In this document: positions 1 to 60,365 of the stretch, piece after piece
Layout: the number at the start of each line of letters is the position of its first letter
How positions within the stretch are numbered: the stretch's first letter is position 1
Assembly: GCA_964016885.1 (NCBI GenBank)
Contig: OZ024764.1
Location: 10,974,001-11,038,000, forward strand
Source of the DNA: Eledone cirrhosa
Lineage: Eukaryota
DNA: 64,000 nucleotides
Direction of reading: 5' to 3'
Translations under genes and position numbers: made by a program
The notes under the pieces: model-generated
Told to the model about the DNA's origin: nothing
Databases searched by the model: none
Seen by the model: only the letters and a program-made list of their open reading frames with translations

Positions 1-1
1 C

Positions 2-367
<366 letters not shown>

Positions 368-617
368 TATCTGTGTTAAATCATCATCTCAGAAGAGATC
401 TATAAAAGTAGCCTTAACAATATCAATGGCCATTGTATGAAAGAAATATTTTATATAACAATAAATATATTCACACATGTATGAAGATATTACAGTGTGT
501 GAATACAACCTCACAACACTATTATAACAGTAGCACGCATGTAACACATGACAACGACTTTGTGTCAGATTTATATCAGAAACAATAATTTAATATCTTT
601 ATCTTTCTCACTCACAC

Positions 618-798
618 AGTGTTGACAAGATGGTTAGTGGAAGAAAAGCAATCATCTCTAGCTATCTATCTATTTTCTTATCTTTGGGCAATAAAAACAG
701 CACCATCTATCTGTAAGTGTTGACAAGATGGTTAGTGGAAGAAAAGCAATCATCTATAGCTATCTATCTATTTTCTTATCTTTGGGCAATAAAAACAG
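618..798 (+). repeat. 98-bp tandem repeat (~1.8 copies) in the ZNF-1 3' region, each unit carrying AATAAA
   Basis: agtgttgacaagatggttag... starts at 618 and 716. Confidence 0.85.
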
Positions 799-1212
799 AG
801 TTATGAGACAAATTAGTCTGGAGACTACATCATGTTCATATAGATCTATATTTTGATTTGGTTGCTATCCCCTTCCTAACACCAACCATATTACAGTGTG
901 GACTGGGAGCTTTTTATCATGACATTGTACCATGCATGTGATTGTCATTTCCTGTGTGAGTCCCAAATTATTGACTTCTGACCTCATAATTTAATAAACA
1001 AAAATATAAATAAAACCGTCTTACTTTGAAATTATTCTCTTACCATTTTATATGTAAAATATCTGAGCAAGGCTTGTCGTGGCACAATAACATGCAGGAC
1101 TATATGTAAGTGAGATGAAAAACCCTGCTTCTGTACAGACACAGTGAGTGAAGTCCTGTCCAACCTTTGCTAGCAGAGAAAGTGAAATTTAAAAGATGAT
1201 TGATTATATATG

Positions 1213-1360
1213 TGAAGCGCATGATTTATTGGTTAGAGCTTTGGGCTTGCAATTGAAAGGTTGTGAGTTCGATTCTCAGACCGAGTGATGTGTTGTGTCC
1301 TTGAGCAAGACACTTTATTTCACATTGCTCCAGTTTACTCAGCTGTAGAAATGAGTTGCG
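1213..1360 (+). mobile_element. tRNA-derived SINE head with a CORE-like central segment
   Basis: A-box/B-box-like (tggttagagc...gagttcgattc) followed by tgtgtccttgagcaagacacttt; copies at 6390, 20710-20838(-), 40720-40852(-), 52443, 60402. Confidence 0.75.
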
Positions 1361-1952: not shown

Positions 1953-2929
1953 TTATATATATATATATTAATATAATATAATATAGAAATGGCTTCTACA
2001 AGACTAGAACTGTTTCATTTGGAAGAAATCATCAGGATTGTGGACTGTATCCCTGTAATGTAGGCATATGCGGATATATATATATGGTACAAATTATATA
2101 TATATATATATGGTACAATTATATATATATAGATGGTACAATTATATACATATATATACGGTAAAAATTATATATATACGATACAAATTATATATATATA
2201 CATATATATACGGTACAAATTATATCTATACATATATGGTACAAATTAGTTTGTTTTAAATTAAAACAAACTAACTAATTAACAAATGAGACATAAATGA
2301 TAAAGGGATTACACGTCCCACCCCAAACCTATCCTATTTATATAACATAAGGGATTTCTAGTAATGTACTTTTTAGTCATATATAATATTTTTTCATGTA
2401 GAAACAAGATTAATTGTCGCAGGAATGTTACCATTTTAAACTGGCCACACCCGGTCATAATTCTCTCACCTCTTTCTGATCAAACAGGCCACTCATACTT
2501 ATGTTAAGGTATTGTTCTCAGACTAATATCAAAATCTTGTAGATTGGATATTATGTGAGATAATTATTTACTGCGAAAATATAACATATATAGAGTAATG
2601 TAAATGTTAAAGGGTTAAAATAATATTTCACAGGAGATAGATTAGCAAAATTTAAAAAGCAGGGTTGGGGATGGTAAAAATCTGAAAAATTAACAAGTGA
2701 AAACAAGGCAAAACGAAAAATAATTTTTTAAAGGGGAAACCTTAAAAAATTATTTTTTGAAAATAAAAATACATACGAAAAACATAGAACTCCAGGGTTT
2801 CCACCCATCGAGATGGACTTTGGCAGTTTCGACTCCTACTAATTGCTGATGCAATGTATGTCTGGGTTAAACTATGTATTTTAATGTTGAATCTTGTTTA
2901 AAAAATATAATTATCCATTAAAGCTTATA

Positions 2930-2949
2930 ATGTTTCTCTTTTATTTCAG
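2930..2949 (+). other. Conserved 3' splice acceptor of the terminal ZNF exon (also AG at 10121-10122, 18890-18891, 30161-30162)
   Basis: Polypyrimidine + TTTCAG at the left edge of the homology block shared by ZNF-2 to ZNF-5. Confidence 0.7.
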
Positions 2950-3054
2950 AACATCAGATGACATTGGCATTGAAGTATATTTTTACCTTGGATACATCAT
3001 CAATATTTATCATCTTTTAAAGACTAGAAGAAGTTTTTATACAGAGCAGATATA

Positions 3055-3409
3055 CCCTATTTCCCGGCGCCGAAGACGTTTCGTCCTTGAGGGTGGACCC
3101 TAATTTTGACAACCAAAAATTTGAAATAAAATAATTGTTTCTACTATTGGCACAAGGCCAGTAATTCACCAGTACATTACTGGTACTTTATTTTATCGAC
3201 CCCCGTAAGGATGAACAGCAAAGTTAACCTCGGCTGGATTTGAACTCAGAATGGAAAGGGCCGTAACTCTATGCGTCAAAGCATGGCGTCCGACCCTCTA
3301 CCGAGACTGCCAATAAAATAATAAACAACCTTCGGCCTCCAAGACGCATGGTAGACTTTTTAGACTTATTTTAGGAAAAAAGTAGCTTCTTTGACGCCGG
3401 GAAATGCGG
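3055..3409. mobile_element. Tc1/mariner-type (Tc2/pogo-like ends) MITE with TA duplication, carrying a nested SINE, in the ZNF-2 5'UTR
   Basis: TIRs CCCTATTTCCCGGCGCCGAAGA / TCTTTGACGCCGGGAAATGCGG flanked by TA; empty site AGATATAACCCTG in ZNF-4 (~19005) and ZNF-5 (~30260). Confidence 0.85.
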
Positions 3410-3658
3410 TAACCCTGTTTATATAAATCTGTGGTAGAATAACTGAAATATTTCCTCTGACTGAGTTTATTAGCAAGAATTCTCTACTTCACTGTTTGGA
3501 ATGTGTACAAGATGATTTTATATTTAAACTAAACTTGGATTACAAAGGTGCAACATCTTCAGATATCAACAAAGATCACAGTAGTGGAAGGAATATTTGT
3601 TAAGAATAATATATAAAAAAATAAAACATTGGTATATTTTGTCGAGAGAAGAAGCATT

Positions 3659-5446
3659 ATGGAAAATAAATTGTGTGAGAACAAGATTAAATATGAAACA
3701 CAGTCTAAAAGTATTGAGTTACCTGATGAAATGCCAAAGAATACAGGAAAAACATCATACAGGTGTGATATCTGTAAAAAGTCATTCTCTCAAAAATTTA
3801 ATCTCACCACACATCAGGCTATTCATACAGGAGTGAAACCATATCACTGTGATATCTGTGGTAAATCATTTTCTCAAAAGGGTAATGTAAGTATTCACAG
3901 GCGTATTCATACAGGAGAGAAACCCTATTGCTGCAGTATCTGTGGTAAATCATTCTCTGTTAGAAGTGCCTTAACTACTCACCAACATATTCACACAGGA
4001 GAGAAACCATATCACTGTGATATCTGTGGTAAATCATTCCCTGAAAGTGATAACTTAACAAAACATATACGCATTCATACTGGTGAGAAACCATATCATT
4101 GTGACATCTGTGATAAATCATTCTCTCAAAATGGTGTGTTAAACGCTCACAAATATACTCATGCTGGAGAGAAACCATATCACTGTGATATCTGTGGTAA
4201 ATCATTCTCTGTAAAAAGTGTTTTGACTACTCACCAACGTATTCATACGGGAGAGAAACCATATCACTGTGATATCTGTGGTAAATCATTCCCTGAAAGT
4301 GATAACTTAACAAAACATATACGCATTCATACTGGTGAGAAACCATATCATTGTGACATCTGTGATAAATCATTCTCTCGAAATTCTATGTTAAACATCC
4401 ACAAATATACTCATACAGGAGACAAACCCTATTGCTGCAGTATCTGTGGTAAATCATTCTCTGTAAGAAGTGCCTTAACTACTCACCAACATATTCACAC
4501 AGGAGAGAAACCATATCACTGTGATATCTGTGGTAAATCATTCCCTGAAAGAGGTAACTTAACAAAACATATACGCATTCATACTGGTGAGAAACCATAT
4601 CATTGTGACATCTGTGATAAATCATTCTCTCAAAATGGTGTGTTAAACGCTCACAAATATACTCATGCTGGAGAGAAACCATATCACTGTGATATCTGTG
4701 GTAAATCATTCTCTGTAAAAAGTGTTTTGACTACTCACCAACGTATTCATACGGGAGAGAAACCATATCACTGTGATATCTGTGGTAAATCATTCCCTGA
4801 AAGTGATAACTTAACAAAACATATACGCATTCATACTGGTGAGAAACCATATCATTGTGACATCTGTGATAAATCATTCTCTCGAAATTCTATGTTAAAC
4901 ATCCACAAATATACTCATACAGGAGACAAACCCTATTGCTGCAGTATCTGTGGTAAATCATTCTCTGTAAGAAGTGCCTTAACTACTCACCAACATATTC
5001 ACACAGGAGAGAAACCATATCACTGTGATATCTGTGGTAAATCATTCCCTGAAAGAGGTAACTTAACAAAACATATACGCATTCATACTGGTGAGAAACC
5101 ATATCATTGTGACATCTGTGATAAATCATTCTCTCAAAATTATGTGTTAAACACTCACAAATATACTCATGCTGGAGAGAAACCATATCACTGTGATATC
5201 TGTGGTAAATCATTCTCTGTAAAAAGTGTTTTGACTACTCACCAACGTATTCATACGGGAGAGAAAGCATATCACTGTGATATCTGTGGTCAATCATTCT
5301 CGAGCAGAGGTAAATTAATTATTCACAAACGTGTTCATACAGGAGAGAAACCATATCACTGTGATATATGTGGTAAATCATTCTCCCAAGCTGGCCACTT
5401 AACTAGACACAAATACATTCATACAGGAGAGAAACCATATCACTGA
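3659..5446 (+). CDS. C2H2 zinc-finger protein ZNF-2, 595 aa, 20 fingers
   Basis: First ATG at 3659 (MENKLCE...), 28-aa leader, 20 x 28-aa fingers; no KRAB or other effector domain visible. Confidence 0.95.
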
Positions 5447-5694
5447 TATCTGTGTTAAATCATCATCTCAGAAGAGATCTATAAAAGTAGCCTTAACAAT
5501 ATCAACAGCCATTGTATGAAAGATATTTTATATAACAATAAATATATTCACACATGTATGAAGATATTACAGTGTGTGAATACAACCTCACAACACTATT
5601 ATAACAGTAGCACGCATGTAACACATCACAACCACTTTGTGTCAGATTTATATCAGAAACAATAATTTAATATCTTTCTCTTTCTCACTCACAC

Positions 5695-5973
5695 AGTGTT
5701 GACAAGATGGTTAGTGGAAGAAAAGCAATCATCTATAGCTATCTGTCTATTTTCTTATCTTTGGGCAATAAAAACAGCACCATCTATCTGTAAGTGTTGA
5801 CAAGATGGTTAGTGGAAGAAAAGCAATCATCTATAGCTATCTGTCTATTTTCTTATCTTTGGGCAATAAAAACAGCACCATCTATCTGTAAGTGTTGACA
5901 AGATGGTTAGTGGAAGAAAAGCAATCATCTATAGCTCTCTATCTATTTTCTTATCTTTGGGCAATAAAAACAG
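5695..5973 (+). repeat. 98-bp tandem repeat (~2.8 copies) in the ZNF-2 3' region
   Basis: Units start at 5695, 5793 and 5891. Confidence 0.85.
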
Positions 5974-6603
5974 AGTTATGAGACAAATTAGTCTGGAGAC
6001 CACATCATGTTCATATAGATCTATATTTTGATTTGGTTGCTATCCCCTTCCTAACACCAACCATATTACAGTATGGACTGGGAGCTTTTTATCATGACAT
6101 TGTACCATGTATGTGATTGTCATTTCCTGTGTGAGTCCCAAATTATTGACTTCTGACCTCATAATTTAATAAACAAAAATATAAATAAAACCGTCTTACT
6201 TTGAAATTATTCTCTTACCATTTTATATGTAAAATATCTGAGCAAGGCTTGTCGTGGCACAATAACATGCAGGACTATATGTAAGCGAGATGAAAAGCCC
6301 TGCTTCTGTACAGACACAGTGAGTGAGGTCCTGTCCAACCTTTGCTAGCAGAGAAAGTGAAATTTAAAAGATGATTGATTATATATGTGAAGCGCATGAC
6401 TTATTGGTTAGAGCTTTGGGCTTGCAATTGAAAGGTTGTGAGTTCGAGTCTCAGACCGAGTGATGTGTTGTGTCCTTGAGCAAGACACTTTATTTCACAT
6501 TGCTCATTAATATATATATATATATATATATTTGTGGTAAGGTTGCTTAGATGCATCCATAGGCAGTTTGCCGGTTGAGCACTCTTTGCTTCGAAATCAC
6601 TAG

Positions 6604-6696
6604 ACGTATCTGAGGAACTTGCGATTCCAGAGTCAGGTTCAATCCACAAACAGATCACACCTCGAGCTGTTTGCCGGAGAAACACTTGTAATACGT
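6604..6696 (+). ncRNA. Type-I hammerhead ribozyme motif with long stem-II insert
   Basis: ACGTAT-CTGAGGA-(62 nt)-GAAAC-actt-GTA/ATACGT: perfect 6-bp stem I, AATAAA directly downstream. Confidence 0.65.
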
Positions 6697-9129: not shown

Positions 9130-10227
9130 TCTGTTGTAGTAATGACAGTAACTTCGCGTTACACTCCCTGGATATATATATATTAATACAGGGGCCGGCC
9201 GTCGAACAAACACTACGCATTCGACCAGACCATGTATCATGTAAAGAAAATTTTTTTTTCGGGGAAATTATTCCAAATTGAAAGGTTTCTTAGGAACTTT
9301 CTATGTTTATTTTAGGTTTTGCCGAGTGAAGAGCTCAGGCTCTCATAATTGTCTTTTATACCTTGTTAAATTAGATAACTGAATCACAGCTTTTTAACCC
9401 CTTTGTTGCCTACCTGGCGAAAACAGACTCTGATTCTATGAAATAAAACCACTAGTTTTTTTGTGTTTTTTTAAAACCAGAATTAGTCGTTTAGTTTATA
9501 TATTGAGACCCCAAACCTATCCTATTTATATAACATAAGGGATTTTTAGTCATATATAATATTTTTTCATGTAGAAACAAGATTAATTGTCGCGGGAATG
9601 TTACCATTTTAAACTGGCCACATCCGGTCATAATTCTCTCACCTCTTTCTGATCAAACAGGCCACTCATACTTATGTTAAGGTATTGTTCTCAGACTAAT
9701 ATCAAAATCTTGTAGGTTGGATATTATGTGAGATAATTATTTACTGTGAAAATATAACATATATAGAGTAATGTAAATGTTAAAGGGTTAAAATAATATT
9801 TCACCGGAGATAGATTAGCAAAATTTAAAAAGCAGGGTTGGGGATGGTAAAAATCTCCAAAATTAACAAGTGAAAACAAGGCAAAACGGAATATAATTTT
9901 TTAAAGGGGAAACCTTAAAAAATTATTTTTTGAAAATAAAAATACAAACGAAAGACATAGAACTCCAGGGTTTCCACCCATTGAGATGGACTTTGGCAGT
10001 TTCGACTCCTACTAATTGCTGATCCAATGTATGTCTGGGTTAAACTATGTATTTTAATGTTGAATCTTGTTTAAAAAATATAATTATCCATTAAAGCTTA
10101 TAATGTTTCTCTTTTATTTCAGAACATCAGATGACATTGGCATTGAAGTATATTTTTACCTTGGATACATCATCAATATTTATCATCTTTTAAAGACTAG
10201 AAGAAGTTTTTATACAGAGCAGATATA

Positions 10228-10581
10228 CCCTATTTCCCGGCGCCGAAGACGTTTCGTCCTTGAGGGTGGACCCTAATTTTGACAACCAAAAATTTGAAAA
10301 AAAATAATTGTTTCTACTATTGGCACAAGGCCAGTAATTCACCAGTACATTACTGGTACTTTATTATATCGACCCCGTAATGATGAAAGGCAAAGTTAAC
10401 TTCGGCGGGATTTGAACTCAGAATGGAAAGGGCCGTAACTCTATGCGTCAAAGCATGGCGTCCGACCCTCTACCGATACTGCCAATAAAATAATAAACAA
10501 CCTTCGGCCTCCAAGACGCATGGTAGACTTTTTAGACTTATTTTAGGAAAAAAGTAGCTTCTTTGACGCCGGGAAATGCGG
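10228..10581. mobile_element. MITE plus nested SINE in the ZNF-3 5'UTR (same insertion as 3055-3409)
   Basis: Same TIRs, TA duplication and position. Confidence 0.85.
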
Positions 10582-10842
10582 TAACCCTGTTTATATAAAT
10601 CTGTGGTAGAATAACTGAAATATTTCCTCTGACTGAGTTTATTAGCAAGAATTCTCTACTTCACTGTTTGGAATGTGTACAAGATGATTTTATATTTAAA
10701 CTAAACTTGGATTACAAAGGTGCAACATCTTCAGATATCAACAAAGATCACAGTTGATGGAAATGTAGTGGAAGGAATATTTGTTACAAATAATATATAA
10801 AAAAATAAAACATTGGTATATTTTGTCGAGAGAAGAAGCATT

Positions 10843-12054
10843 ATGGAAAATAAATTGTGTGAGAACAAGATGAAATATGAAACACAGTCTAAAAGTATTG
10901 AGTTACCTGATGAAATGCCAAAAAATACAGGAAAAACATCATACAGGTGTGATATCTGTAATAAGACATTCTCTCAAAAATTTAATGTTACTATTCACCA
11001 ACGTACTCATACAGGAGAGAAGCCATATCAGTGTGATATCTGTGATAAATCATTCTCTCACAAATGTAACCTTATTGTTCACCAACGTACTCATACAGGA
11101 GAGACACCATATCATTGTGATATCTGTGATAAATTATTCTCTCAAAATAGTGACTTAACTCGACACAAACGCATTCATACAGGAGAGAAACCATATCACT
11201 GTGATGTCTGCAGTAAATCATTCTCTCAAAAATGCAACCTCACTGTACACCAATGTATTCATACGGGTGAGAAACCATATCACTGTGATATCTGTGGGAA
11301 ATCATTCTTTAAAAATAATAACCTAACTCAACACCAACGCATTCATACAGGAGAGAAACCATATCACTGTGACATCTGTGGGAAATCATTTTCTAAAAAG
11401 GATAACTTAACAACTCACAAACGCATTCATACAGGAGAGAAACCATATCACTGCGATATCTGTAGTAAATCATTCTCTCAAAATAGTGACCTAACTAAAC
11501 ACAAATGTATTCATACAGGAGAGAAACCATATCACTGTGACATCTGTGGTAAATCATTCTCTCAAAGTGGTGACCTAACTAAACACACACGTATTCATAC
11601 AGGAGAGAAACCATATCACTGCAATATCTGTGGAAAATCATTCACTAAAAGTGATCACTTACCAACACACATACGTATTCATACAGGAGAGAAACCATAT
11701 CATTGTGAAATCTGTGGTGACTCTTTCTCTCGAAATGATTACTTAACTAAACACGTACGCATTCACACAGGCGAGAAACCCTATCTCTGTGATATCTGTG
11801 GTCAGTCATTTTCTCTATATCATAACTTAACTAAACATAAACGTATTCACACAGGAGAGAAACCATACCACTGTGATATCTGTGGTCAGTCATTTTCTCT
11901 ATATCATAACTTAACTAAACATAAACGTATTCACACAGGAGAGAAACCATACCACTGTGATATCTGTGGGAAATCATACTCTCGAAATGCTGATTTGAAT
12001 ATTCACAAACGTCTTCATACAGAAGAGAAACCATATCTCGACTCAGAATCTTAG
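10843..12054 (+). CDS. C2H2 zinc-finger protein ZNF-3, 403 aa, 13 fingers
   Basis: ATG at 10843, leader nearly identical to ZNF-2, 13 fingers, fingers 11 and 12 share SLYHNLTKH. Confidence 0.95.
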
Positions 12055-12070
12055 ACGGACTCATATACTA

Positions 12071-12164
12071 AGCATATCTGACGATCTTTTGATTACAGAG
12101 TCAGGTTCAATCTATAATAGGTCTTGCCTCAAGCTGATCAATAGTGAAACATATGTAATATGTT
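12071..12164 (+). ncRNA. Type-I hammerhead ribozyme motif immediately 3' of the ZNF-3 stop codon
   Basis: AGCATAT-CTGACGA-t-CTTTTGATT...GATCAATAG-t-GAAAC-atat-GTA/ATATGTT; ATTAAA at 12165-12170. Confidence 0.7.
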
Positions 12165-12214
12165 ATTAAATATGTTAAGATGCAACACTGAATCCTTGTT
12201 CCTTATTCTTATAG

Positions 12215-12247
<33 letters not shown>

Positions 12248-12807
12248 TTGTGTGTGTATTTTGAGAAAGGTTACGTGATGACAGAAACAGAATTACTATT
12301 GTATTACTCTGTTGCCATATCGAAATTTGTATAAGAACAAAACCTGCAGAAGACAGGGCTCTAGTTCAATCATGGAAGTGGACACATGTATTGTATGTGC
12401 ATTATACAACTTATTATATAACTTCCAGGGGTCCCAGAAACCTACCTGAGATTTTTTATCGATTATATTGATTTTAATCAATCAAAGATGGTCTTGGTTA
12501 GTTTAAACCTTTCTGTATCTATGATAGTTATGTTATATGTATGGCCATGGCCTTCTGTCCGTTTTCTTGGTGTCACATTTTATAACTGTTCTGTTTACTC
12601 TGGACCTAATGTTTCTAACTTTTGCTCCATTGAGTGCTTTGTGATTGCCTCAAACAAATCGAATAGTGCTTGCTCTGCGACAGTTAGAACTTATATTTAT
12701 ACCTATTATATATATATAGACATACAATTATTATTATATAATATCTATATTGGAGTTGGTCAACATAATTATATCATATATACATACATACAATTATATA
12801 TATATAT

Positions 12808-13000
12808 ATTTAATATAGAAATGGCTTCTACAGGACAAATTGTTTCATTCGAAGGAAATCATCAGGAAATCCGACTGATAATTTTCTTCGAATGAAACCG
12901 TTCTCGTCCTATAGAAGCCATTTCTATATTAGATATTTATACTCTGCTATGTATTGAGTACCTTACTTATTGTGGTTTCCCCCGATTGAACCCGGGATAC
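12808..13000. repeat. Inverted repeat of the 1787/8087/13815 Penelope-pLTR-like family with degenerate hammerheads
   Basis: 12808-12867 is the reverse complement of ~12875-12931; the rest matches 1725-1790 in reverse. Confidence 0.7.
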
Positions 13001-13454
13001 ATATATCTATTAAACAAAGAAGTATATATATATATATCTACAAGTGAAGATACATACAGAGTGTCCAACTTATACTAAGTTTGGTTCTATGAAAGAGTTA
13101 ATAAAATCAACAGATTCAGAGCCTAATCAAATCATATATTGGAAAAGCAAACAAGATAAGAAAAACATCTTTACTTACTCACTTTAATGTCCCTACTGCA
13201 GTTTCATTGAGAAAATAACGATACTCCGAGTAGAGTATCGCGAAAAATCTCAAATCGTCAAGAGACTTTCTCGGTCCAGAAAAAAAATACAAGACAAGAA
13301 TTCCAAGCTGTTCACTATCTATCTATCTCGTTCTGAGATCGCATTTCAGAATTGGTGTTGCTATTAAGGCCAACTAGGGTGCACACCCACGCTAGGGAAC
13401 ATCTCAGGATTGGCGCTGCCATTAAGGCCAACTAGGGCGCAATATGTGCGTAAT

Positions 13455-13730
13455 GTGTGTAATATATGGTAGCCCTTAAGAAAATTAGGTGTAGTAGAAT
13501 GGTTGGTGAGAACAGTGCAAGCCATATACAGAGGAGCTGTCAGTAAAGTGAGAGTAGGAAGTGAGTTTAGTAGGGAATTCAATGTACAGGGAGTTCATCA
13601 AGGTTCAGTTCTTAGACCACTGCTGTTCAGCATAGTTCTCCAGATCATAACAGAAGAGTTTAAAATTCATCTAACCCATGTTATCATGGGAAAATGGAAG
13701 TTAAACGATGTTGATATTGATTATGATGAT
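13455..13730 (+). mobile_element. Internally deleted RTE-clade LINE (RT fragment joined to 3' tail)
   Basis: LRKLGVVEWLVRTVQAIY...GVHQGSVLRPLLF motif, then aacccatg...gttaaacgatgttgat tail. Confidence 0.8.
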
Positions 13731-13814
13731 AAGAAATCTTGTAAAACAAATATATATATACATATGAGGTATATACAGAAAAGGTATAAATACTACCATA
13801 TTACTTGGACAGTC

Positions 13815-13865
13815 GGCTTCCTGATGATTTCTCCCGAATGAAACAGTTCTAGTCCTGTAGAAGAC
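13815..13865 (+). ncRNA. Type-I hammerhead ribozyme motif
   Basis: GGCTTC-CTGATGA-tTTCtcccGAAt-GAA-ACAG-ttctagtc-CTGT-A/GAAGAC; sister copies end in GAAGCC or GAAGCT. Confidence 0.75.
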
Positions 13866-13907
13866 ATTTCTATATTAAATATATATATACATACATATTT
13901 ATATATA

Positions 13908-14205
13908 TATCATCATACGTCCGCTTTTCCCGGTTTGCAAGAGCGGGACGGGTCCTATTCAGCACAGCATCTCTCCACTTGTCACGGTCCTTTGTCATCT
14001 CCTCCGTGAGCTTCAGCGATCTGAGGTCTGCTCTCACCACCTCCGCCCATGTTTTTCGTGGTCTTCCTCCACTGCGTCTTACTGCTACTGGGATTTTTTG
14101 GCACTTCTTTACCCAGCGGTCATCCTCCATGCGCATCACATGTCCATACCATCTCAGTCTTCTCTCCCGCACACTACAACTTATCCCTCTTATACCCAGT
14201 TTCTC
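13908..14205 (-). mobile_element. RTE-clade LINE 3' end
   Basis: RERRLRWYGHVMRM...GGRPRKTW...DRDKWR followed by a (TGA)n tail; further copies at 29890-30027(+) and 54058-54345(-). Confidence 0.9.
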
Positions 14206-14314
14206 ATATATATATATATATATATGTGTATAATGGTAGCTATGGTGATTCCATAGGCGGTATGCCAAAATTAGCACTCGATATTCAGAAGAGTAGAGTG
14301 TAGATAGTATAATG

Positions 14315-14788
14315 AAAACGAAAAATCAGTGATGCATCTGTACTTAATTTATTGCATGTTACAATTGTTTTGCTCGAGACATGGTCCTTGTATGAATCTG
14401 GCTGATTCTACTTCTGCAGGTTCTTTCAGACACGGGTATTTCGTTTGGGGCAAATTTTATCACTGGGGTGTTATCATCAAAAAACACCCTAAAAAAACCC
14501 TACTTCCACTCTTGTCAAGCCATTGGCTGTTTTTACTCTCGACCATGTCTCGAGCTACCTGCCGGCGAAACAATTGTAACACGCAATAAATTAAGTACAG
14601 ATGCATCACTGATTTTTCGTTTTCTTTACACTATATATATATATATAGCTTTCACCGTATTTTTAACTAAAGGAATTTTAGCTTGATAACGGGGTTTAGA
14701 ACCCTCAGATAAATGGAAAAAGATGGGTTCTAAACCCCGTTATCAAGCTAAAATTCCTTTAGTTAAAAATACGGTGAAAGCTATATAT
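14315..14788. repeat. Two inverted repeats beside (TA)n (14315-14386/14546-14622 and 14640-14706/14726-14788)
   Basis: Direct reverse-complement arms; the first carries GAAAC-aatt-GTA followed by AATAAA. Confidence 0.8.
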
Positions 14789-15177
14789 TTTCTAATTTCA
14801 AACTCGCTCACTGTTTCAAAACATACTTATATATATATATATATATTGTGGTAATATATATTTTTTGTGTCCCCCCTGCCTGAATGAAGGGCCAGTTTAA
14901 AAGTGAGCTCAATTATACTGTTGTGATCTCCATTATACAATGGTGGCACATATATGTTGAGTGTATGAAACTTCGTTTATACTATATATATATATCATCA
15001 TCATCGTTTAATGTCTATCTTCCACGCTAGCATGGGTTAGACAGGAGTTGTCCAAATTTGAGGCAAGATTGGTCAGGTGACCGTGTCTCGTTCGTATAGG
15101 ACTGTCTGGCAGGTTTTCTACAACTGGATGCCCTTCCTGATACCAACCACGTTTACAGTGTGGACAGGGAACCTTTT

Positions 15178-15652
<475 letters not shown>

Positions 15653-15782
15653 CACAGGGTGGTCCGAAAGTCTTGTAACATAGTTTTAACTTTCATTGAT
15701 AAAATAAAGTACCAGTAATGCACTGGGTAATTGATGGCCTTGTGCCAAAAGTAGAAACAATTATATATATATATATATATAA

Positions 15783-15831
<49 letters not shown>

Positions 15832-15839
15832 TATACACA

Positions 15840-16805
15840 CAGGGTGGTCCGAAAGTCTTGTAACATAGTTTTAACTTTCATTAATTGGCAGTATCGGTAG
15901 AGGGTCAGACGCCATGCTTTGACGCATAGAGTTACGGCCCTTGCCATTCTGAGTTCAAATCCCGCCGAGGTTAACTTTGCCTTTCATCCTTACGGGGTCG
16001 ATAAAATAAAGTACCAGTAATGCACTGGCTAATTGCTGGCCTTGTGCCAAAAGTAGAAACAATTATTTATTGTTTTAATCCCGCCGAGGTTAACTTTGCC
16101 TTTCATCCTTACGGAGTCGATAAAATAAAGTACCAGTAATGTACTGGGTTCTTGCTGGCCTTGTGCCAAACGTAGAAACAATTATTTATTGTTTTAATAA
16201 TATAATATATAATAATAATATAATTTTCTATTTCAGAGCTCCTACAGTTTGGAAGAGAGGCTGCTTGCAACCATCCTCCGAGGAAACGCCTTCTCCATTT
16301 TGTTTGCAGGGACTGTGGGTAGGCCAACACGTGGAACAACATTTGCTAACCATAAGGAGAGATGGGGAGGGTGAGAGAGATGGAGGCGAAGACAGTGGGA
16401 GTTGGGCTCTTCCACGTTCGGACCATATCGTTGAGGTTGTGTTCATCAAGCCCTAGTGCAGTGACGAAATCTATCTGTATATATAGGAGAAAATTACCCA
16501 CTCTACTACCCTAAGTATTGAGTACTCTGGTCCATCTGGTTCCTTACCACAACTCCTTCGTTATCTGTATATTGTATATATATATTGATGGAGGTATTTC
16601 ACACACAAGTAATTAGTTGTCTTTACGAAAAAAAATGGACACATGATCGTGTGCATTCTGGCACGAGCATGGAGGATGTGCGACATGGCCTCACTGCAAG
16701 ATTCGGCAAAACCAGCTCCTCCGAAGAGGACGATCCTACAATGGGGACATAAACTGTTTCTCATTACTTTTTCGTCGGGGGTGACAAGACTTTCGGACCA
16801 CCTTG
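15840..16805 (+). mobile_element. Degenerate Tc1/mariner element with nested SINEs; left end duplicated at 15655
   Basis: TIR CAGGGTGGTCCGAAAGTCTTGT / ACAAGACTTTCGGACCACCTTG-TA; frameshifted transposase N-terminus-like ...RFGK..PPKRTILQWGHKLF at 16640-16760. Confidence 0.7.
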
Positions 16806-16814
16806 TACATACAT

Positions 16815-16877
<63 letters not shown>

Positions 16878-16939
16878 AAGGTAGGGAATCCATAATGTAG
16901 AGAACATTTTTGACTTGCATTAAAATATATAATAAATAA

Positions 16940-17127
16940 GGGCGGTGGATTGGCAGTATCGGTAGAGAGTCGGACGCCATGCTTTCCAGCATAGTTACGT
17001 CCCTTTACGGTCTGAGTTCAAATCCCGTCGAGGTTAACTTTGCCTTTCATCCTTACGGGGTCGATAAAATAAAGTACCAGTAATGTACTGGGTAATTGCT
17101 GGCCTTGTGCCTAAAGTAGAAACAATT
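16940..17127 (+). mobile_element. Full-length tRNA-derived SINE (family A, (ATT)n tail) with 21-bp target duplication
   Basis: A box TGGCAGTATCGG, B box GAGTTCAAATCC; ATTAAAATATATAATAAATAA at 16919 and 17125; more than 12 copies in the window. Confidence 0.9.
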
Positions 17128-17194
17128 AAAATATATAATAAATAAATTAATGAAAAACAAGGGAGATAACTGTCACTATGATCCCTTTCTTCTT

Positions 17195-18050
17195 TGTCAT
17201 TCACTGCGATCCTGCACTTCCTGTCTCCACCTACTGACATATTTTTAAAAAATTCCACTCCACGTTACATTACTTGCAACTGTACTAATCCACACCTTAT
17301 AGATTTAATATTTTCAAGGTATTTCAACTTTATTCTAGTAATTTTTACTTCAGTTTATTGTGTTTTCATCTTAAAATATTTCTATTTTTTTCTTTAATCT
17401 TTCGTCTTCATCTTCTTTCCAGATGAAATATTTTCAGACTGTCAACCGCATCTTATTGTTTGTTGTTATTTTCTATAAAACACTAAATATTGAACTGATT
17501 TAAGTAATTATCATCTTCAACGATCTTTGTTACACAGTGTATCTTCCTTTATACCAGAGAATATAGATAACAAATGTATATTTATCCCAGTCAGATCATT
17601 AACACCATTTTTCTCTCTCTGGACTGGGTTGTGTGTTGTGTTCTTGAGCAAAACAGTTGATGATGCTTCAGTAGATTCAACTGAAAATGAGTACCAACTA
17701 TAGCTGGGAGTTTAACCCTGCGATGGTCTCGTGTCCTGTCCAGGGGAAAGTATTGTACTCTCAGTCGCTGCACGCCATGGAAACTGGGATCAGCTCCTGC
17801 CTGATGAATCCCCGGGCTTGAGACTGACTTTAGACTTAGACATCCTCAACGATCTACGTTACGCAGTGTATCTTCCTTTATACCAGAGAAGATAGATAAC
17901 AAATGTATATGTATCCCAGCTCTCTCTCTCTCTCACACACTTTCTAAACTACTATCAATCTTTCTCTACCAAATTTACAGAATCTACATCTTTATAATGT
18001 AGTGAATCCTTGGACAACAGATCGGGAAATAAGAAAACTAAAATATCATC
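17195..18050 (+). promoter_or_regulatory. Promoter/5'-exon block of ZNF-4 (Ets variant ACTTCCTGT 17216-17224, acceptor 17421-17422) with SINE insertion 17620-17840
   Basis: Homologous to 8465-8910 and 23490-24355; the GTAAGT donor segment is missing. Confidence 0.5.
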
Positions 18051-18158
18051 CCAGTTCATGATACTGTCGAACCTCATTGATGTTTGGCTCACCTGGGAAA
18101 GTATCGGTCTCTTCCCACATCTAACCTAATTTCCCATGATTGTCTCACCTGCACCAGG

Positions 18159-18239
<81 letters not shown>

Positions 18240-19262
18240 CATCATCGTTTAACGTCCATCTTCCACACTAGCATGGGTTGGACGGGTTTGTCTTACTTGA
18301 GGCAAGATTGATCGAGTGACCGTGACTCGCTCGTACAGAACTGTATCGGGCAGGTTTTCTACGGCTTGATGCCCTTCTTAACACCAACCACATTTACAGT
18401 CTGGACAGGGAACCTTTTTATCGTGTCTGCTACTTAATTAGTTAATTGTTTTACGATTGTTTCAGAAGGTTCATTGATCATGGTATATATATATATATTA
18501 TATAATATACTGTTACACATTTTATAGGTGCCACTGTAGTTTAAGAATATATATTCCAGGCTCTTTATAAATCAACATATAGAGATATGTGTTCAATCAT
18601 AAGGGATAAAAAACCACTAGAATGATGAACATATTACCTATGGAAAGAATATATATATATATATATAATGTTACACAATCTGAAAGTGTAGCTATAATCT
18701 TTAAATATGTAGGATTCACATACAGTAGTGTCATGTAATTTCAATAACAAATTTAAAAGTTAACTTCAGTCGTTCATGTAAAAGTTTATATCTATTATTT
18801 AACAGTGTAAAGATGTAGTAAAAGTTCCTCTCTTGAATCAGACTCATTAAAAATATCTGCTAAAACTTTAAATGTTTCTCTATCATTTCAGAATTCAGAT
18901 GACATTGGCATTAAAGTATGGATACATCTTGGATGTACATCACCTTGGATACATCATCAATATTTATCATCTTTTAAAGACTAAAAGAAGTTGTTGTACA
19001 GAACAGATATAACCCTGTTTATATAAATCTGTGGCAGAATTACTGAAATATTTCCTCTGACTGAGTTTATTAGCAAGAATTCTCTACATCAGTTTGGAAT
19101 GTGTACAAGATGATTTTATATTTTAACTAAACTTGTATTACAAAGGTGCAACATCTTCAGATATTAACAAAGATCACAGTTGATGGAAATATAGTGGAAT
19201 TAATATTGAAAAAAACGTATTCAAGAGAAACATCTGTATATTTTGTCAAGAGAAGAGGCATT

Positions 19263-26589: not shown

Positions 26590-28650
26590 GAGGTAGTGTA
26601 GGTGTCATGACAAAAAGCACCCAGTCCATTCTGTTAAGTTGTGTAGGTGTCATGACTAAAAGCACCCAGTCCACACTGTAAAATGATCGTGTAGATGTCA
26701 CAACAAAAAGCACCCAGTCGATACTGTAAAGTGGTCATGTAGGTGTCACAACAAAAAGCACCCAGTCGACACTGTAAAGTGGTCATGTAGGTGTCACAAC
26801 AAAAAGCACCCAGTCCACACTGTAAAGTGGTCATGTAGGTGTCACAACAAAAAGCACCCAGTCGACACTGTAAAGTGGTTGTGTAGGTGACACGACATAA
26901 AGCACCCATTCCACACTGTAAAGTGGTCATGTAGGTGTCACGACAAAAAGCACCCAGTCGACACTGTAAAGTGGTCATGTAGGTGTCACAACAAAAAGCA
27001 CCCAGTCGACACTGTAAAGTGGTCATGTAGGTGTCACAACAAAAAGCACCCAGTCGACACTGTAAAGTGGTCATGTAGGTGTCACAACAAAAAGCACCCA
27101 GTCGACACTGTAAAGTGGTCATGTAGGTGTCACAACAAAAAGCACCCAGTCCACACTGTAAAGTGGTCATGTAGATGTCACAACAAAAAGCACCCAGTCG
27201 ACACTGTAAAGTGGTCATGTAGGTGTCACAACAAAAAGCACCCAGTCGACACTGTAAAGTGGTCATGTAGGTGTCACAACAAAAAGCACCCAGTCGACAC
27301 TGTAAAGTGGTCATGTAGGTGTCACAACAAAAAGCACCCAGTCGACACTGTAAAGTGGTCATGTAGGTGTCACAACAAAAAGCACCCAGTCGACACTGTA
27401 AAGTGGTCATGTAGGTGTCACAACAAAAAGCACCCAGTCGACACTGTAAAGTGGTCATGTAGGTGTCACAACAAAAAGCACCCAGTCGACACTGTAAAGT
27501 GGTCATGTAGGTGTCACAACAAAAAGCACCCAGTCGACACTGTAAAGTGGTCATGTAGGTGTCACAACAAAAAGCACCCAGTCGACACTGTAAAGTGGTC
27601 ATGTAGGTGTCACAACAAAAAGCACCCAGTCGACACTGTAAAGTGGTCGTGTAGGTGTCACAACAAAAAGCACCCAGTCGACACTGTAAAGTGGTCGTGT
27701 AGGTGTCACAACAAAAAGCACCCAGTCGACACTGTAAAGTGGTCATGTAGGTGTCACAACAAAAAGCACCCAGTCGACACTGTAAAGTGGTCATGTAGGT
27801 GTCACAACAAAAAGCACCCAGTCGACACTGTAAAGTGGTCATGTAGGTGTCACAACAAAAAGCACCCAGTCGACACTGTAAAGTGGTCATGTAGGTGTCA
27901 CAACAAAAAGCACCCAGTCGACACTGTAAAGTGGTCATGTAGGTGTCACAACAAAAAGCACCCAGTCGACACTGTAAAGTGGTCATGTAGGTGTCACAAC
28001 AAAAAGCACCCAGTCGACACTGTAAAGTGGTCATGTAGGTGTCACAACAAAAAGCACCCAGTCGACACTGTAAAGTGGTCATGTAGGTGTCACAACAAAA
28101 AGCACCCAGTCGACACTGTAAAGTGGTCATGTAGGTGTCACAACAAAAAGCACCCAGTCGACACTGTAAAGTGGTCATGTAGGTGTCACAACAAAAAGCA
28201 CCCAGTCGACACTGTAAAGTGGTCATGTAGGTGTCACAACAAAAAGCACCCAGTCGACACTGTAAAGTGGTCGTGTAGGTGTCACAACAAAAAGCACCCA
28301 GTCGACACTGTAAAGTGGTCATGTAGGTGTCACAACAAAAAGCACCCAGTCGACACTGTAAAGTGGTCATGTAGGTGTCACAACAAAAAGCACCCAGTCG
28401 ACACTGTAAAGTGGTCATGTAGGTGTCACAACAAAAAGCACCCAGTCGACACTGTAAAGTGGTCATGTAGGTGTCACAACAAAAAGCACCCAGTCGACAC
28501 TGTAAAGTGGTCATGTAGGTGTCACAACAAAAAGCACCCAGTCGACACTGTAAAGTGGTTGTGTAGGTGACACGACATAAAGCACCCATTCCATGCTGTT
28601 TAGGGGTTGTGTAGGAGACACGGTAAAAATATTCCCAGTCCACATTGTAA
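26590..28650 (+). repeat. 48-bp minisatellite (~41 copies) expanded inside a SINE whose 3' part continues to 28812
   Basis: Unit aaaaagcacccagtcgacactgtaaagtggtcatgtaggtgtcacaac; followed by ttaggaagggcatccagc...(TGA)n. Confidence 0.95.
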
Positions 28651-28959
28651 GTGTGGTTGGTGTTAGGAAGGGCATCCAGCCATAGAAAACCTGCCAGATA
28701 GTCCTATACGAGCGGCAAGACATGGTCACCCAATCAATCTTACCTCAAGTGGGACAATTCCTGTCTAACCCATACTAACATGGAAGATAGACGTTAAATG
28801 ATGATGATGATGCGGTCTGCAGACACATTTTTGCACACCATGACTCTGTCCTCCCCCACAGTGAAAATGGCCTATATTCAGAATGAGGTATCCTGGATAT
28901 GCAACAGATGAAGTGAGGGTAGCGACAGACATTTAGCACACTGGAATTCCCGAGAGTTC

Positions 28960-31579: not shown

Positions 31580-31698
31580 TAACCAGGGCAAAGGAGACGC
31601 TCTAGACAACTATAGAGGCATTAAGTTGGTTAACCAGATCATGAAGGTCACAGAAAGAGTTATTGCACAGCTGATTAGGGACTGAATTAAACTTGATG
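31580..31698 (+). mobile_element. RTE reverse-transcriptase fragment
   Basis: GKGDALDNYRGIKLVNQIMKVTERVI motif. Confidence 0.75.
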
Positions 31699-32703
31699 GT
31701 AAAGTGGTCATGTAGGTCTCACAAGAAAAAGCACCCAGCCCACACTGTAAAGTGGTTGTATAGAAGTCATGACAAAAAGCACCCAGCCCACACTGTAATG
31801 TGGTTGTGTAGAAGTCATGACAAAAAGCACCCAGCCCACACTGTAATGTGGTTGTGTAGAAGTCATGACAAAAAGCACCCAGCCCACACTGTAATGTGGT
31901 TGTGTAGAAGTCATGACAAAAAGCACCCAGCCCACACTGTAAAGTGGTTGTGTAGAAGTCATGACAAAAAGCACCCAGCCCACACTGTAAAGTGGTTGTG
32001 TAGGAGTCATGACAAAAAGCACCCAGCCCACACTGTAAAGTGGTTGTGTAGGAGTCATGACAAAAAGCACCCAGCCCACAGTGTAAAGTGGTTGTGTAGG
32101 AGTCATGACAAAAAGCACCCAGCCCACACTGTAAAGTGGTTGTGTAGGAGTCATGACAAAAAGCACCCAGCCCACACTGTAAAGTGGTTGTGTAGGAGTC
32201 ATGACAAAAAGCACCCAGCCCACACTGTAAAGTGGTTGTGTAGGAGTCATGACAAAAAGCACCCAGCCCACACTGTAAAGTGGTTGTGTAGGAGTCATGA
32301 CAAAAAGCACCCAGCCCACACTGTAAAGTGGTTGTGTAGGAGTCATGACAAAAAGCACCCAGCCCACACTGTAAAGTGGTTGTGTAGGAGTCATGACAAA
32401 AAGCACCCAGCCCACACTGTAAAGTGGTTGTGTAGGAGTCATGACAAAAAGCACCCAGCCCACACTGTAAAGTGGTTGTGTAGAAGTCATGACAAAAAGC
32501 ACCCAGCCCACACTGTAAAGTGGTTGTGTAGGAGTCATGACAAAAAGCACCCAGCCCACACTGTAAAGTGGTTGTGTAGGAGTCGTGACAAAAAGCACCC
32601 AGCCCACACTGTAAAGTGGTTGTGTAGAAGTCATGACAAAAAGCACCCTGCCCACACTGTAATGTGGTTGTGTTGGAATCACGACAAAAATCACACTGTA
32701 AAG
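31699..32703 (+). repeat. Second 48-bp minisatellite (~21 copies) inside a SINE ending at ~32856
   Basis: Unit aaaaagcacccagcccacactgtaaagtggttgtgtaggagtcatgac. Confidence 0.95.
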
Positions 32704-33568
32704 TAGTTGGCGTTAGGAAGGGCATCCAGCTGTAGAAATGCCAGAAACAATCCTATATGAGCAGGACACTGTCATCTGACCCAACTTACCTCAAATGGGA
32801 CAATCTGTCCAACCCATGCTAGTGTGGAAAAAAGTGAATGTTAAATGATGACGATTATATATATATATATATATAATACTGAAATGATGTCATTGGATAA
32901 GACCGAGATACTTTCAATCGTTTGTCCACTCAATGATTTCATTAAGTCTGTATCATTAAGATATCAACCAAAAGGAAAACAGAGTGCACACTAATATGTT
33001 AAACAGTGAGAAAACCGATTTTATGTGGGTAGAGTCTTTGATCTCTGAACCCGGACTAATGCATTAGTTTCTGGTACTCCACCTGCTGGTAACAGTCGAT
33101 ATGGAACTGGTGTGTGCAGAAATTAGGTAATGATATTAAGCATTACGTAATTGGCTAAGAACAGTTTCATCAGCAAGGAATTAGCCTCTTCGAAACAAGT
33201 CATTTAGTCCACTGTCATGGTGTGAATTCACCTTTATACTAGTAAGCTCTACATTCAGTGTCATGTGCTATGTATATGATGGTTGCAAACTCTGCTAAGA
33301 GTACTGCAATCGCTTGTCAGGTTACAGAGTTTGGTGCACTTTTAGGCTACGGCCAGTCACACAAACCTGTAACATATCCTGAACAAGCAATGCCTGTGCT
33401 TTGAAGATTTTTTAAGTGGGGAAAGGCTTTGCACTCGACCAATCCCACTCTCTGAACATCGCAAACACGACCCAAGAAGGAGAACTAGTCAACTTCATCG
33501 GATGCTTCTTCTGAAGCCGCAGGTTTTTTTTTCAGCGTTTCCCTCTCCTAGGTAAAAAACAAAAAATG

Positions 33569-52442: not shown

Positions 52443-52845
52443 AGGCGCATCGCTTAGTGGTTAGAGCATTGGGCTTGCAATCGAAAGGTTGTGAGTTCAA
52501 TTCTCAGACCGGGTGATGTGTTGTTTCCTTGAGCAAGACACTTTATTTCACATTGCTCCAGTTTACTCAGCTGTAGAAATGAGATGATAGGGACTGGTGT
52601 CCCTATCATTCCACTGCAAAGTGGTTGTGGAGGTGCCACGGCAAAAAAAGCACCCAGCACTCACTGTAAATGAGGTTGGTGTTAGGAAGAGCATCCAGCT
52701 GTAGAAATTAAGCCAGAATCAGTTTCCGTATGAGCAAGACAAGGTCAGCCGACCAGACACTGCCCACAACAGGACAACCCGTCTAACCCATGCTAGCGTG
52801 GAAGAACGGACGTAAAAACGGTGATGATGATGATGATGATGATGT
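52443..52845 (+). mobile_element. Full-length composite SINE with (TGA)n tail
   Basis: A/B boxes, CORE-like segment, 48-bp segment and RTE-type tail. Confidence 0.85.
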
Positions 52846-56952: not shown

Positions 56953-59900
56953 AAAGTCTAAAGTCTGTTTTAAGACAGAAGGTTCATTTGGCCAATGTTT
57001 ATCCTGGTTTCATGGCGTGAAGCATCTGAGAGTAGAAGACTTCCCCCTGGACAGGACACCAGTCCATCACAGGGTTAAACCCCCAGCTATTACTGGTACT
57101 TATCCTGGTTTCATGGCCTGAGGCAACTGAGAGTAGAAGACTTCCCCCTGGACAGGACACCAGTCCATCACAGGGTTAAACCCCCAGCTATTACTGGTAC
57201 TTATCCTGGTTTCATGGCGTGAAGCGACTGAGAGTACAAGACTTCCCCCCTGGACAGGACACCAGTCCATCACAGGGTTAAACCCCCAGCTATTACTGGT
57301 ACTTATCCCGGTTTCATGGTGTGAAGTGACTGAGAGTACAAGACTTCCCCCTGGACAGGACACCAGTCCATCACAGGGTTAAACCCCCAGCTATTACTGG
57401 TACTTATCCTGGTTTCATGGCGTGAAGCATCTGAGAGTAGAAGACTTCCCCCTGGACAGGACACCAGTCCATCACAGGGTTAAACCCCCAGCTATTACTG
57501 GTACTTATCCTGGTTTCATGGCCTGAGGCAACTGAGAGTAGAAGACTTCCCCCTGGACAGGACACCAGTCCATCACAGGGTTAAACCCCCAGCTATTACT
57601 GGTACTTATCCTGGTTTCATGGCGTGAAGCGACTGAGAGTACAAGACTTCCCCCCTGGACAGGACACCAGTCCATCACAGGGTTAAACCCCCTGCTATTA
57701 CTGGTACTTATCCCGGTTTCATGGTGTGAAGTGACTGAGAGTACAAGACTTCCCCCTGGACAGGACACCAGTCCATCACAGGGTTAAACCCCCAGCTATT
57801 ACTGGTACTTATCCCGGTTTCATGGTGTGAAGCAACTGAGAGTTTAAGACTTCCCCCTGGACAGGACACCAGTCCATCACAGGGTTAAACCCCCAGCTAT
57901 TACTGGTACTTATCCTGGTTTCATGGCGTGAAGCATCTGAGAGTAGAAGACTTCCCCCTGGACAGGACACCAGTCCATCACAGGGTTAAACCCCCAGCTA
58001 TTACTGGTACTTATCCTGGTTTCATGGCGTGAAGCATCTGAGAGTAGAAGACTTCCCCCTGGACAGGACACCAGTCCATCACAGGGTTAAACCCCCAGCT
58101 ATTACTGGTACTTATCCTGGTTTCATGGCGTGAAGCATCTGAGAGTAGAAGACTTCCCCCTGGACAGGACACCAGTCCATCACAGGGTTAAACCCCCAGC
58201 TATTACTGGTACTTATCCTGGTTTCATGGCGTGAAGCATCTGAGAGTAGAAGACTCCCCCCTGGACAGGACACCAGTCCATCACAGGGTTAAACCCTCAG
58301 CTATTACTGGTACTTATCCTGGTTTCATGGCGTGAAGCATCTGAGAGTAGAAGACTTCCCCCTGGACAGGACACCAGTCCATCACAGGGTTAAACCCCCA
58401 GCTATTACTGGTACTTATCCTGGTTTCATGGCGTGAAGCGACTGAGAGTAGAAGACTTCCCCCTGGACAGGACACCAGTCCATCACAGGGTTAAACCCCC
58501 AGCTATTACTGGTACTTATCCTGGTTTCATGGCGTGAAGCAACTGAGAGTACAAGACTCCCCCCTGGACAGGACACCAGTCCATCACAGGGTTAAACCCC
58601 CAGCTATTACTGGTACTTATCCTGGTTTCATGGCGTGAAGCGACTGAGAGTAGAAGACTTCCCCCTGGACAGGACACCAGTCCATCACAGGGTTAAACCC
58701 CCAGCTATTACTGGTACTTATCCTGGTTTCATGGCGTGAAGCATCTGAGAGTAGAAGACTTCCCCCTGGACAGGACACCAGTCCATCACAGGGTTAAACC
58801 CCCAGCTATTACTGGTACTTATCCTGGTTTCATGGTCTGAAGCATCTGAGAGTAGAAGACTTCCCCCTGGACAGGACACCAGTCCATCACAGGGTTAAAC
58901 CCCCAGCTATTACTGGTACTTATCCTGGTTTCATGGCGTGAAGTGAGTGAGAGTAGAAGACTTCCCCCTGGACAGGACACCAGTCCATCACAGGGTTAAA
59001 CCCCCAGCTATTACTGGTACTTATCCTGGTTTCATGGCATGAAGCAACTGAGAGTAGAAGACTTCCCCCTGGACAGGACACCAGTCCATCACAGGGTTAA
59101 ACCCCCAGCTATTACTGGTACTTATCCTGGTTTCATGGCGTGAAGCGACTGAGAGTAGAAGACTTCCCCCTGGACAGGACACCAGTCCATCACATGGTTA
59201 AAACCCTTGCTATTACTGGTACTTATCCTGGTTTCATGGCTTGAAGCATCTGAGAGTAGAAGACTTCCCCCTGGACAGGACACCAGTCCATCACAGGGTT
59301 AAACCCCCAGCTATTACTGGTACTTATCCTGGTTTCATGGCGTGAAGCAACTGAGAGTAGAAGACTTCCCCCTGGACAGGACACCAGTCCATCATAGGGT
59401 TAAACCCCCAGCTATTACTGGTACTTATCCTGGTTTCATGGTCTGAAGCATCTGAGAGTAGAAGACTTCCCCCTGGACAGGACACCAGTCCATCACAGGG
59501 TTAAACCCCCAGCTATTACTGGTACTTATCCTGGTTTCATGGCGTGAAGTGAGTGAGAGTAGAAGACTTCCCCCTGGACAGGACACCAGTCCATCACAGG
59601 GTTAAACCCCTAGCTATTACTGGTACTTATCCTGGTTTCATGGCTTGAAGCATCTGAGAGTAGAAGACTTCCCCCTGGACAGGACACCAGTCCATCACAG
59701 GGTTAAACCCCCAGCTATTACTGGTACTTATCCTGGTTTCATGGCGTGAAGCAACTGAGAGTAGAAGACTTCCCCCTGGACAGGACACCAGTCCATCACA
59801 GGGTTAAACTCCCAGCTATTACTGGTACTTATCCTGGTTTCATGGCGTGAAGCATCTGAGAGTAGAAGACTTCCCCCTGGACAGGACACCAGTCCATCAC

Positions 59901-60365
59901 AGAGTTAAACTCCCAGCTATTACTGGTACTTATCCTGGTTTCATGGTGTGAAGTGACTGAGAGTAGAAGACTTCCCCCTGGACAGGACACCAGTCCATCA
60001 CAGGGTTAAACCCCCAGCTATTACTGGTACTTATCCTGGTTTCATGGCGTGAAGCATCTGAGAGTAGAAGACTTCCCCTGGACAGGACACCAGTCCATCA
60101 CAGGGTTAAACCCCCAGCTAATACTGGTACTTATCCTGGTTTCATGGTGTGAAGCAACTGAGAGTAGAAGACTTCCCCCTGGACAGGACACCAGTCCATC
60201 ACAGGGTTAAACCCCCAGCTATTACTGGTATTCATTTTCAGCTGAGTATACTGGAGTAACGTGAAATGAAGTGTCTTGCTCAAGAACACAACACGCAACC
60301 CAGGAATCGAACCCACAACATTATGGTCGTAAGTCCAACACCCTTACCACTAGGCTACATGCCTC
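56953..60365 (-). mobile_element. Single SINE (head 60365-60231, tail 56998-56953) whose body is expanded as a 101-bp x ~32 array
   Basis: A/B boxes and CORE-like head precede the array and a GACTTTAGACTT tail follows it; one-unit relatives at 17620-17840 and 23920-24137. Confidence 0.9.

Follow-up and report, generated by a model that had tools for sequence, protein, structure and literature searches.

Hammerheads of Penelope-like elements and of mRNA 3′ ends

The closest described relatives of the hammerhead motif treated here are carried by the pLTRs of metazoan Penelope-like elements (PLEs). According to the accessible parts of Cervera & de la Pena (2014, PMC4209133), these are type I ribozymes with a small palindromic helix III and a long helix II, which occur mostly as solo, truncated, dispersed copies and in inverted neighbouring pairs. 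The G10.1-C11.1 pair is described there as highly conserved in PLE hammerheads, and the metazoan alignments of that source may include U.U-like variants. In the same text, single metazoan PLE hammerheads show no cleavage and dimers have low activity. The hammerhead of an anole PLE cut only in the presence of the PLE protein, and its site showed no RNA-seq ends, as stated in the available sections of PMC11167929.

The hammerhead that follows the zinc-finger ORF ZNF-3 of Eledone cirrhosa shares the general architecture and the dispersed, solo habit of this group. Unlike the ribozymes presented in the accessible text of PMC4209133, it has a multi-helix stem II of 61 nt closed by a Y.U pair (A.A or C.A in sister subfamilies) and a stem I of 7 bp, and it abuts a host ORF. 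The signatures of the repeat that carries it match those given for Neptune-type PLEs in the available portions of two reports (bioRxiv 2021.04.23.441226; PMC11167929), the clade being read from these signatures rather than from a phylogeny. It departs from the Neptune and Nematis EN+ PLEs, as they appear in the accessible part of Craig et al. (2021, bioRxiv 2021.04.23.441226), in its optional tail of about 85 nt versus 30-40.

A second reference point is provided by the Clec2 3′UTR hammerheads, which the available parts of two papers (PMC6765202, PMC2950038) describe as conserved across mammals and active in vitro and in reporters, with an 80% reporter drop (PMC2950038). ZNF-3 resembles them in DNA geometry alone, the predicted cut lying between stop codon and poly(A) signal. 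In contrast to the Clec2 ribozymes, the one at ZNF-3 is a predicted motif only, apparently a repeat copy at the species level whose helix III has 2 bp.

The third comparison is with the non-LTR retrozymes (Li et al. 2026, 10.64898/2026.07.22.740005), whose unit, in the accessible part of that report, is likewise a pLTR-derived type I hammerhead. Unlike these, the ZNF-3 copy is solo: no tandem hammerhead units occur at the locus, and the nearest other motifs lie 5 kb upstream, belong to other subfamilies and have different loop 3 sequences. The same portion of the report states that 0.24-0.32% of related copies in Xenopus overlap exons, mostly 3′UTRs; a 3′UTR position has therefore already been described. 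Within the literature on octopus hammerhead ribozymes, no paper on the ZNF-3 locus was found by title or abstract. The element is judged to be of a known kind and to lie at a 3′ end by chance, and hammerhead motifs near genes are to be expected in this genome, given about 1 per 11 kb here. Its value is that of a tidy example of how a retroelement fragment would have given a young zinc-finger paralogue a new 3′ end.

The ZNF-3 gene and its missing tail

The window, a 64,000-nt stretch of the E. cirrhosa contig OZ024764.1, contains the features below, given in window coordinates.

10843..12054, + strand: ZNF-3, a C2H2 zinc-finger ORF of 403 aa with 13 intact fingers
12037..12041, + strand: junction between finger linker and repeat; finger homology extends to 12037, repeat homology starts at 12041
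12041..12214, + strand: dispersed repeat (short solo copy, 174 bases), likely a pLTR from a PLE of the Neptune type
12052..12054, + strand: TAG stop codon, inside the repeat; GG>TT at 12051-12052 relative to the commonest letters of the family
12071..12164, + strand: type I hammerhead; stem I 12071-77/12158-64, core CUGACGA 12078-84 and GAAA 12146-49
12085..12145, + strand: stem II domain of 61 nt closed by U.U, with four CpG transitions (12090, 12109, 12131, 12140)
12149..12156, + strand: palindrome ACAUAUGU, forming helix III (2 bp in the monomer, 8 bp in the dimer)
12165..12170, + strand: ATTAAA, candidate poly(A) signal, a feature of the repeat family
12215..12241, + strand: (TA)n microsatellite, the usual 3′ neighbour of the family and its likely target
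12259..12750, + strand: older, unrelated dispersed repeat beyond the (TA)n, in the place of a paralogue-like 3′ flank

ZNF-3 is one of eight C2H2 zinc-finger ORFs in a 284-kb region made up of the window and its surroundings, and its 5′ region is a 96% duplicate of that of ZNF-2. Recent tandem duplications with 96-98% identity are also seen elsewhere among the zinc-finger paralogues (window 1-1330 versus 5440-6505, and 2320-3776 versus 9508-10960). The last finger of ZNF-3 finds its best match in its own genome at 88% identity, and none of the 58 matches contains the finger-repeat junction. The exact ZNF-3 protein is absent from the protein collection searched, and a homologue search returned generic C2H2 proteins, none of them named cephalopod in the best 120 of 147. 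Neither search gave an orthologue for the comparison among related species that the initial annotation of this locus had proposed.

That annotation had also pointed out that ZNF-3 lacks the 3′ flanks of its paralogues, which is borne out. Finger remnants are present in the tails of ZNF-2, -4 and -5; the 6.6 kb that follow ZNF-3 (12216-18800) hold neither a finger remnant (best blastn match with finger DNA, E 0.48) nor a paralogue tail (blastn matches to low-complexity sequence only, E at least 0.016), and a tblastn search for finger or tail remains gave nothing better than E at least 3.2. An ending in a broken linker is common in this gene family, as most of 20 paralogous ORFs stop a few residues past a finger.

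Across the eight zinc-finger ORFs there is no sign of a recurring association with hammerheads. Only ZNF-3 has a motif within 1 kb of its stop codon, and the two sense motifs of ZNF-2 lie 1.2 and 1.6 kb away from its stop.

Sequence and fold of the hammerhead

The motif is not a product of chance, since a strict descriptor retrieved 25 hammerheads in the 284 kb and none in each of 10 shuffles; a complete hammerhead behind the stop codon of ZNF-3, as first annotated, is real, and the positions assigned to it and to the TAG are correct. The core follows the type I consensus (CUGANGA, GAAA and NUH), with GUA at 12155-57 as the cut triplet and a predicted cut after A12157. The description of the motif as a minimal hammerhead was wrong in view of the length of the stem II domain. 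This domain is closed by U12085.U12145 instead of G10.1-C11.1, and family members have C or U opposite U.

The stems are supported by covariation: in 18 sequences from three subfamilies, 95.3% of the cells are paired, against 27-42% in slid controls, and 6 of 31 pairs show a two-sided change, figures which do not amount to a probability, as the sequences are related and the structure was derived from them. No Rfam hammerhead model matched, either at the gathering score or at E values up to 10. Furthermore, the predicted free fold differs from the hammerhead fold (z 0.37). Helix III is unstable in the monomer, with a pair probability of 0.02, and is predicted only for the dimer, where the 8-bp palindrome duplex reaches -7.0 kcal/mol; the caveat that activity could depend on dimers was well placed.

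Eight more hammerhead motifs, from several repeat families, are scattered over the window (6610+, 7033+, 46582-/46657+, 55138+, 62338+ and 62617-/62772+, two of these being inverted pairs). The one at 6610 represents a sister subfamily with 2589 candidates genome-wide and covarying stems, and that at 62338 also has a stem II closed by U.U.

A dispersed repeat family

Far from being confined to ZNF-3, the hammerhead belongs to a family with hundreds of copies. A search of the 3.0-Gb genome yielded 49 matches from the 40 scored of 1566 candidates, including nine neighbouring inverted pairs, and three exact patterns matched 91, 166 (a 30-mer) and 137 times genome-wide, with no match in reversed controls. 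Among 30 copies chosen by a pattern on the 3′ side, a set with one spurious alignment and a few duplicate loci, 16 have their 5′ ends at 12039-12054, and longer family copies reach at least 260 nt further upstream. The 3′ ends are of two kinds, one near 12214 and the other about 85 nt beyond it (near 12298), with a microsatellite mostly next. The window copy has the usual 5′ end of the family, its short 3′ end and a (TA)n target. In the family loci L137-L196 the 5′ ends concentrate in a zone 25-40 nt ahead of the ribozyme core; this zone may mark the transcription start of the element, most copies then being short cDNAs of the RNA 5′ end. The short 3′ end (12196-12214) is a pyrimidine tract ending in AG, similar to a 3′ splice site, which, by analogy with Drosophila Penelope, may act as acceptor for an intron in the pLTR.

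Link to a probable Penelope-like parent

The repeat is likely the pLTR of a Neptune-type PLE. It is a dispersed hammerhead repeat with inverted, 5′-truncated neighbours, an optional 3′ tail and a microsatellite target, all as in PLEs, and in five loci (L057, L073, L086, L096 and L144) it adjoins a family of ORFs with RT and GIY-YIG domains, all of them broken or partial. The RT was recognised by Pfam RVT_1 with an E value of 8.5e-5, which is below the Pfam cut-off, and shares 59% identity with an RT protein of Octopus vulgaris. The C-terminal endonuclease was assigned to the GIY-YIG type by its motif, Pfam giving no match for it.

The most complete copy of the likely parent is L096 (G000:C2:345310000-345319000), in which the hammerhead repeat is followed by RT, thumb, cysteine linker and endonuclease, the coding parts being spread over four broken frames. 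Its linker (CTNRKCIIC, CX4CxxC) agrees with the CX2-5CxxC linker of the Neptune clade. The ORF follows the repeat in L096 and precedes it in L073 and L086, and among the loci seen there was no intact pLTR-ORF-pLTR copy nor any single locus with both ends. The assignment to PLEs is therefore likely rather than proven, the link to the parent being drawn from broken loci.

Two other candidates were discarded. L071, considered as a full element, is a local duplication with another PLE fragment, and a GIY-YIG remnant in the window (62299-61865, - strand) was rejected as parent at a blastp E value of 0.045. The latter, an ORF remnant that adjoins the 62338 hammerhead, comes from another Penelope-like family.

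Junction, stop codon and 3′ end

The repeat starts at 12041, within the modal 5′ ends of its family. As finger homology stops four bases earlier, the last four residues of ZNF-3 are repeat-derived. The insertion had been credited with both the stop codon and the 3′ end of the gene, and only the second part stands, given the position of the boundary and the ATTAAA of the repeat. At the stop-codon site the family mostly reads TCG GAG ACG, 24 of 57 copies having TCGGAGACG, and TAG is found in the window copy and in one of the 56 others (a set selected for similarity to either the window copy or the long form). In a near-intact family copy the same frame stays open until the TGA of the CUGA ribozyme core, where the ZNF-3 frame would also stop if it had no TAG. 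A stop beside the insertion needs no special explanation, since inserted DNA in a frame soon brings one.

The present poly(A) signal of ZNF-3 may be this ATTAAA, with about even chances for and against. A U-rich tract follows at 12196-12211, and the next poly(A) signals downstream are at 13009 and 13100.

Probable origin and fate of the insertion

Taken together, 12041-12214 is best explained as a copy of a dispersed PLE-type hammerhead repeat that became fused to the last linker of ZNF-3 and that is, with good confidence, a tolerated relic with little or no cleavage. The endonuclease of the element would have nicked the (TA)n tract 3′ of the gene, and reverse transcription on uncut RNA would have begun at the short internal start of the family (about 12214). 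The cDNA would then have been extended to the usual 5′ end (about 12041) and joined in the terminal finger linker, with loss of the gene's own tail. The frame would at first have reached the TGA in the ribozyme core, and two substitutions, during or after the insertion, would have produced the current TAG. That all 13 fingers are intact indicates that the allele is tolerated.

Self-cleavage at ZNF-3 is predicted to be negligible, because helix III needs a second copy, the G10.1-C11.1 pair is missing, and CpG decay frees a GUCAG (12100-12104) with which the CUGAC of the core is predicted to pair in both the monomer and the dimer. The window copy has kept its core, stem I and palindrome fully intact, and the two-sided change at 12090/12140 keeps the pair (C-G to U-A). 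Weakened by its four CpG transitions, the stem II domain reaches -11.4 kcal/mol versus about -17 in near-intact copies, ranking 43rd of 51 in stability. In the monomer prediction, the pair probability of stem I is 0.11-0.14, and only 2.2-2.9 kcal/mol separate the hammerhead fold from the minimum, a value typical of the family (11th of 27). A pattern located 3′ of the cut site was used to pick 30 copies, and none of them starts at that site, which indicates that genomic copies come from uncut RNA, although cut RNA may simply serve poorly as a template.

There is likewise no sign of selection on the ribozyme of ZNF-3 at the sequence level. The window copy carries 6 differences from the column majority over 139 positions, exactly the family median, so that its within-genome divergence gives no conservation beyond the neutral expectation. 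Nor is the intact core a sign of selection, because 22 of the 56 other copies are just as intact over the 28 positions of core, stem I and helix III. CpG decay in the window copy affects four of seven sites versus a family median of one. Gene-body methylation is known in invertebrates, and this high decay would fit, as a hint, a methylated and transcribed context.

The stretch 12051-12214 has no cover in two runs of raw RNA reads or in three sets of RNA-like contigs (X21, X22, X2, X6, X9), which give partial matches to finger DNA only; X21 has no reads and X22 four at 99% or more identity. As these sets apparently come from other species, the lack of cover carries no information about expression. 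Near-identical pieces of the flanks are present in the DNA-like runs X18 and X19, and none of the matches listed bridges the junction.

Regulatory exaptation of the hammerhead is possible but unlikely. The proposal that the ribozyme tunes the mRNA is unsupported, with hundreds of copies in the genome, no extra conservation, a weak stem II and no dimer partner in cis. In its Clec2-like version, the mRNA would end after the ATTAAA at 12165, and cleavage in cis or in a dimer would remove the poly(A) and lower expression. The intact catalytic core and the position of the cut site between stop and poly(A) signal, the geometry given in the accessible parts of PMC6765202 and PMC2950038, speak for such a role, as does a two-copy co-fold that favours an intermolecular helix III (-40.4 versus 2 x -16.4 kcal/mol). 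However, the core is still mispaired with GUCAG in the predicted dimer, the mRNA of a transcription factor is likely too dilute to dimerise, conservation is not in excess, and the other seven zinc-finger ends have no hammerhead within 1 kb, so this role is improbable. A ribozyme that was active in this mRNA would give Clec2 an invertebrate counterpart and would directly test the role of PLE hammerheads in vivo, which the cited papers call unclear.

An equally small chance is left to the idea that the motif was never part of an mRNA, either because a later deletion fused the fingers to a repeat copy downstream or because the gene is a young duplicate that is silent. ZNF-3 has lost its native tail, and no target-site duplication turned up at the insertion beyond 5-6-mers, which keeps a later deletion in play; the similarity of the 5′ region to that of ZNF-2 would suit a duplicate. 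Nevertheless, the junction falls in the modal 5′ range of the family, as a primary insertion predicts, and the ORF is open with all of its fingers preserved.

Even less probable is conditional cleavage, with the mRNA cut only when RNA of the parent Penelope family (as a trans-dimer through the palindrome) or its protein (by assisted folding) is present: ACAUAUGU is common to 34 of 57 copies with an intact core, and the anole PLE hammerhead is protein-assisted in the available text of PMC11167929, yet the parent ORFs seen are all broken, cleaved templates have left no genomic trace, and there is no conservation signal. Were it true, and the chance is very slight, the locus would act as a transposon sensor, tying a candidate transposon-repressing zinc-finger gene to the activity of its parent element.

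Other repeats of the window

Apart from the hammerheads, the window contains tandem arrays whose repeat units measure about 48 bp and 101 bp (26634-28703, 31610-32752 and about 57100-60134). A weak tRNA match of 29.3 bits at 52452-52507 is probably the head of a tRNA-derived SINE, of which the window holds several copies.
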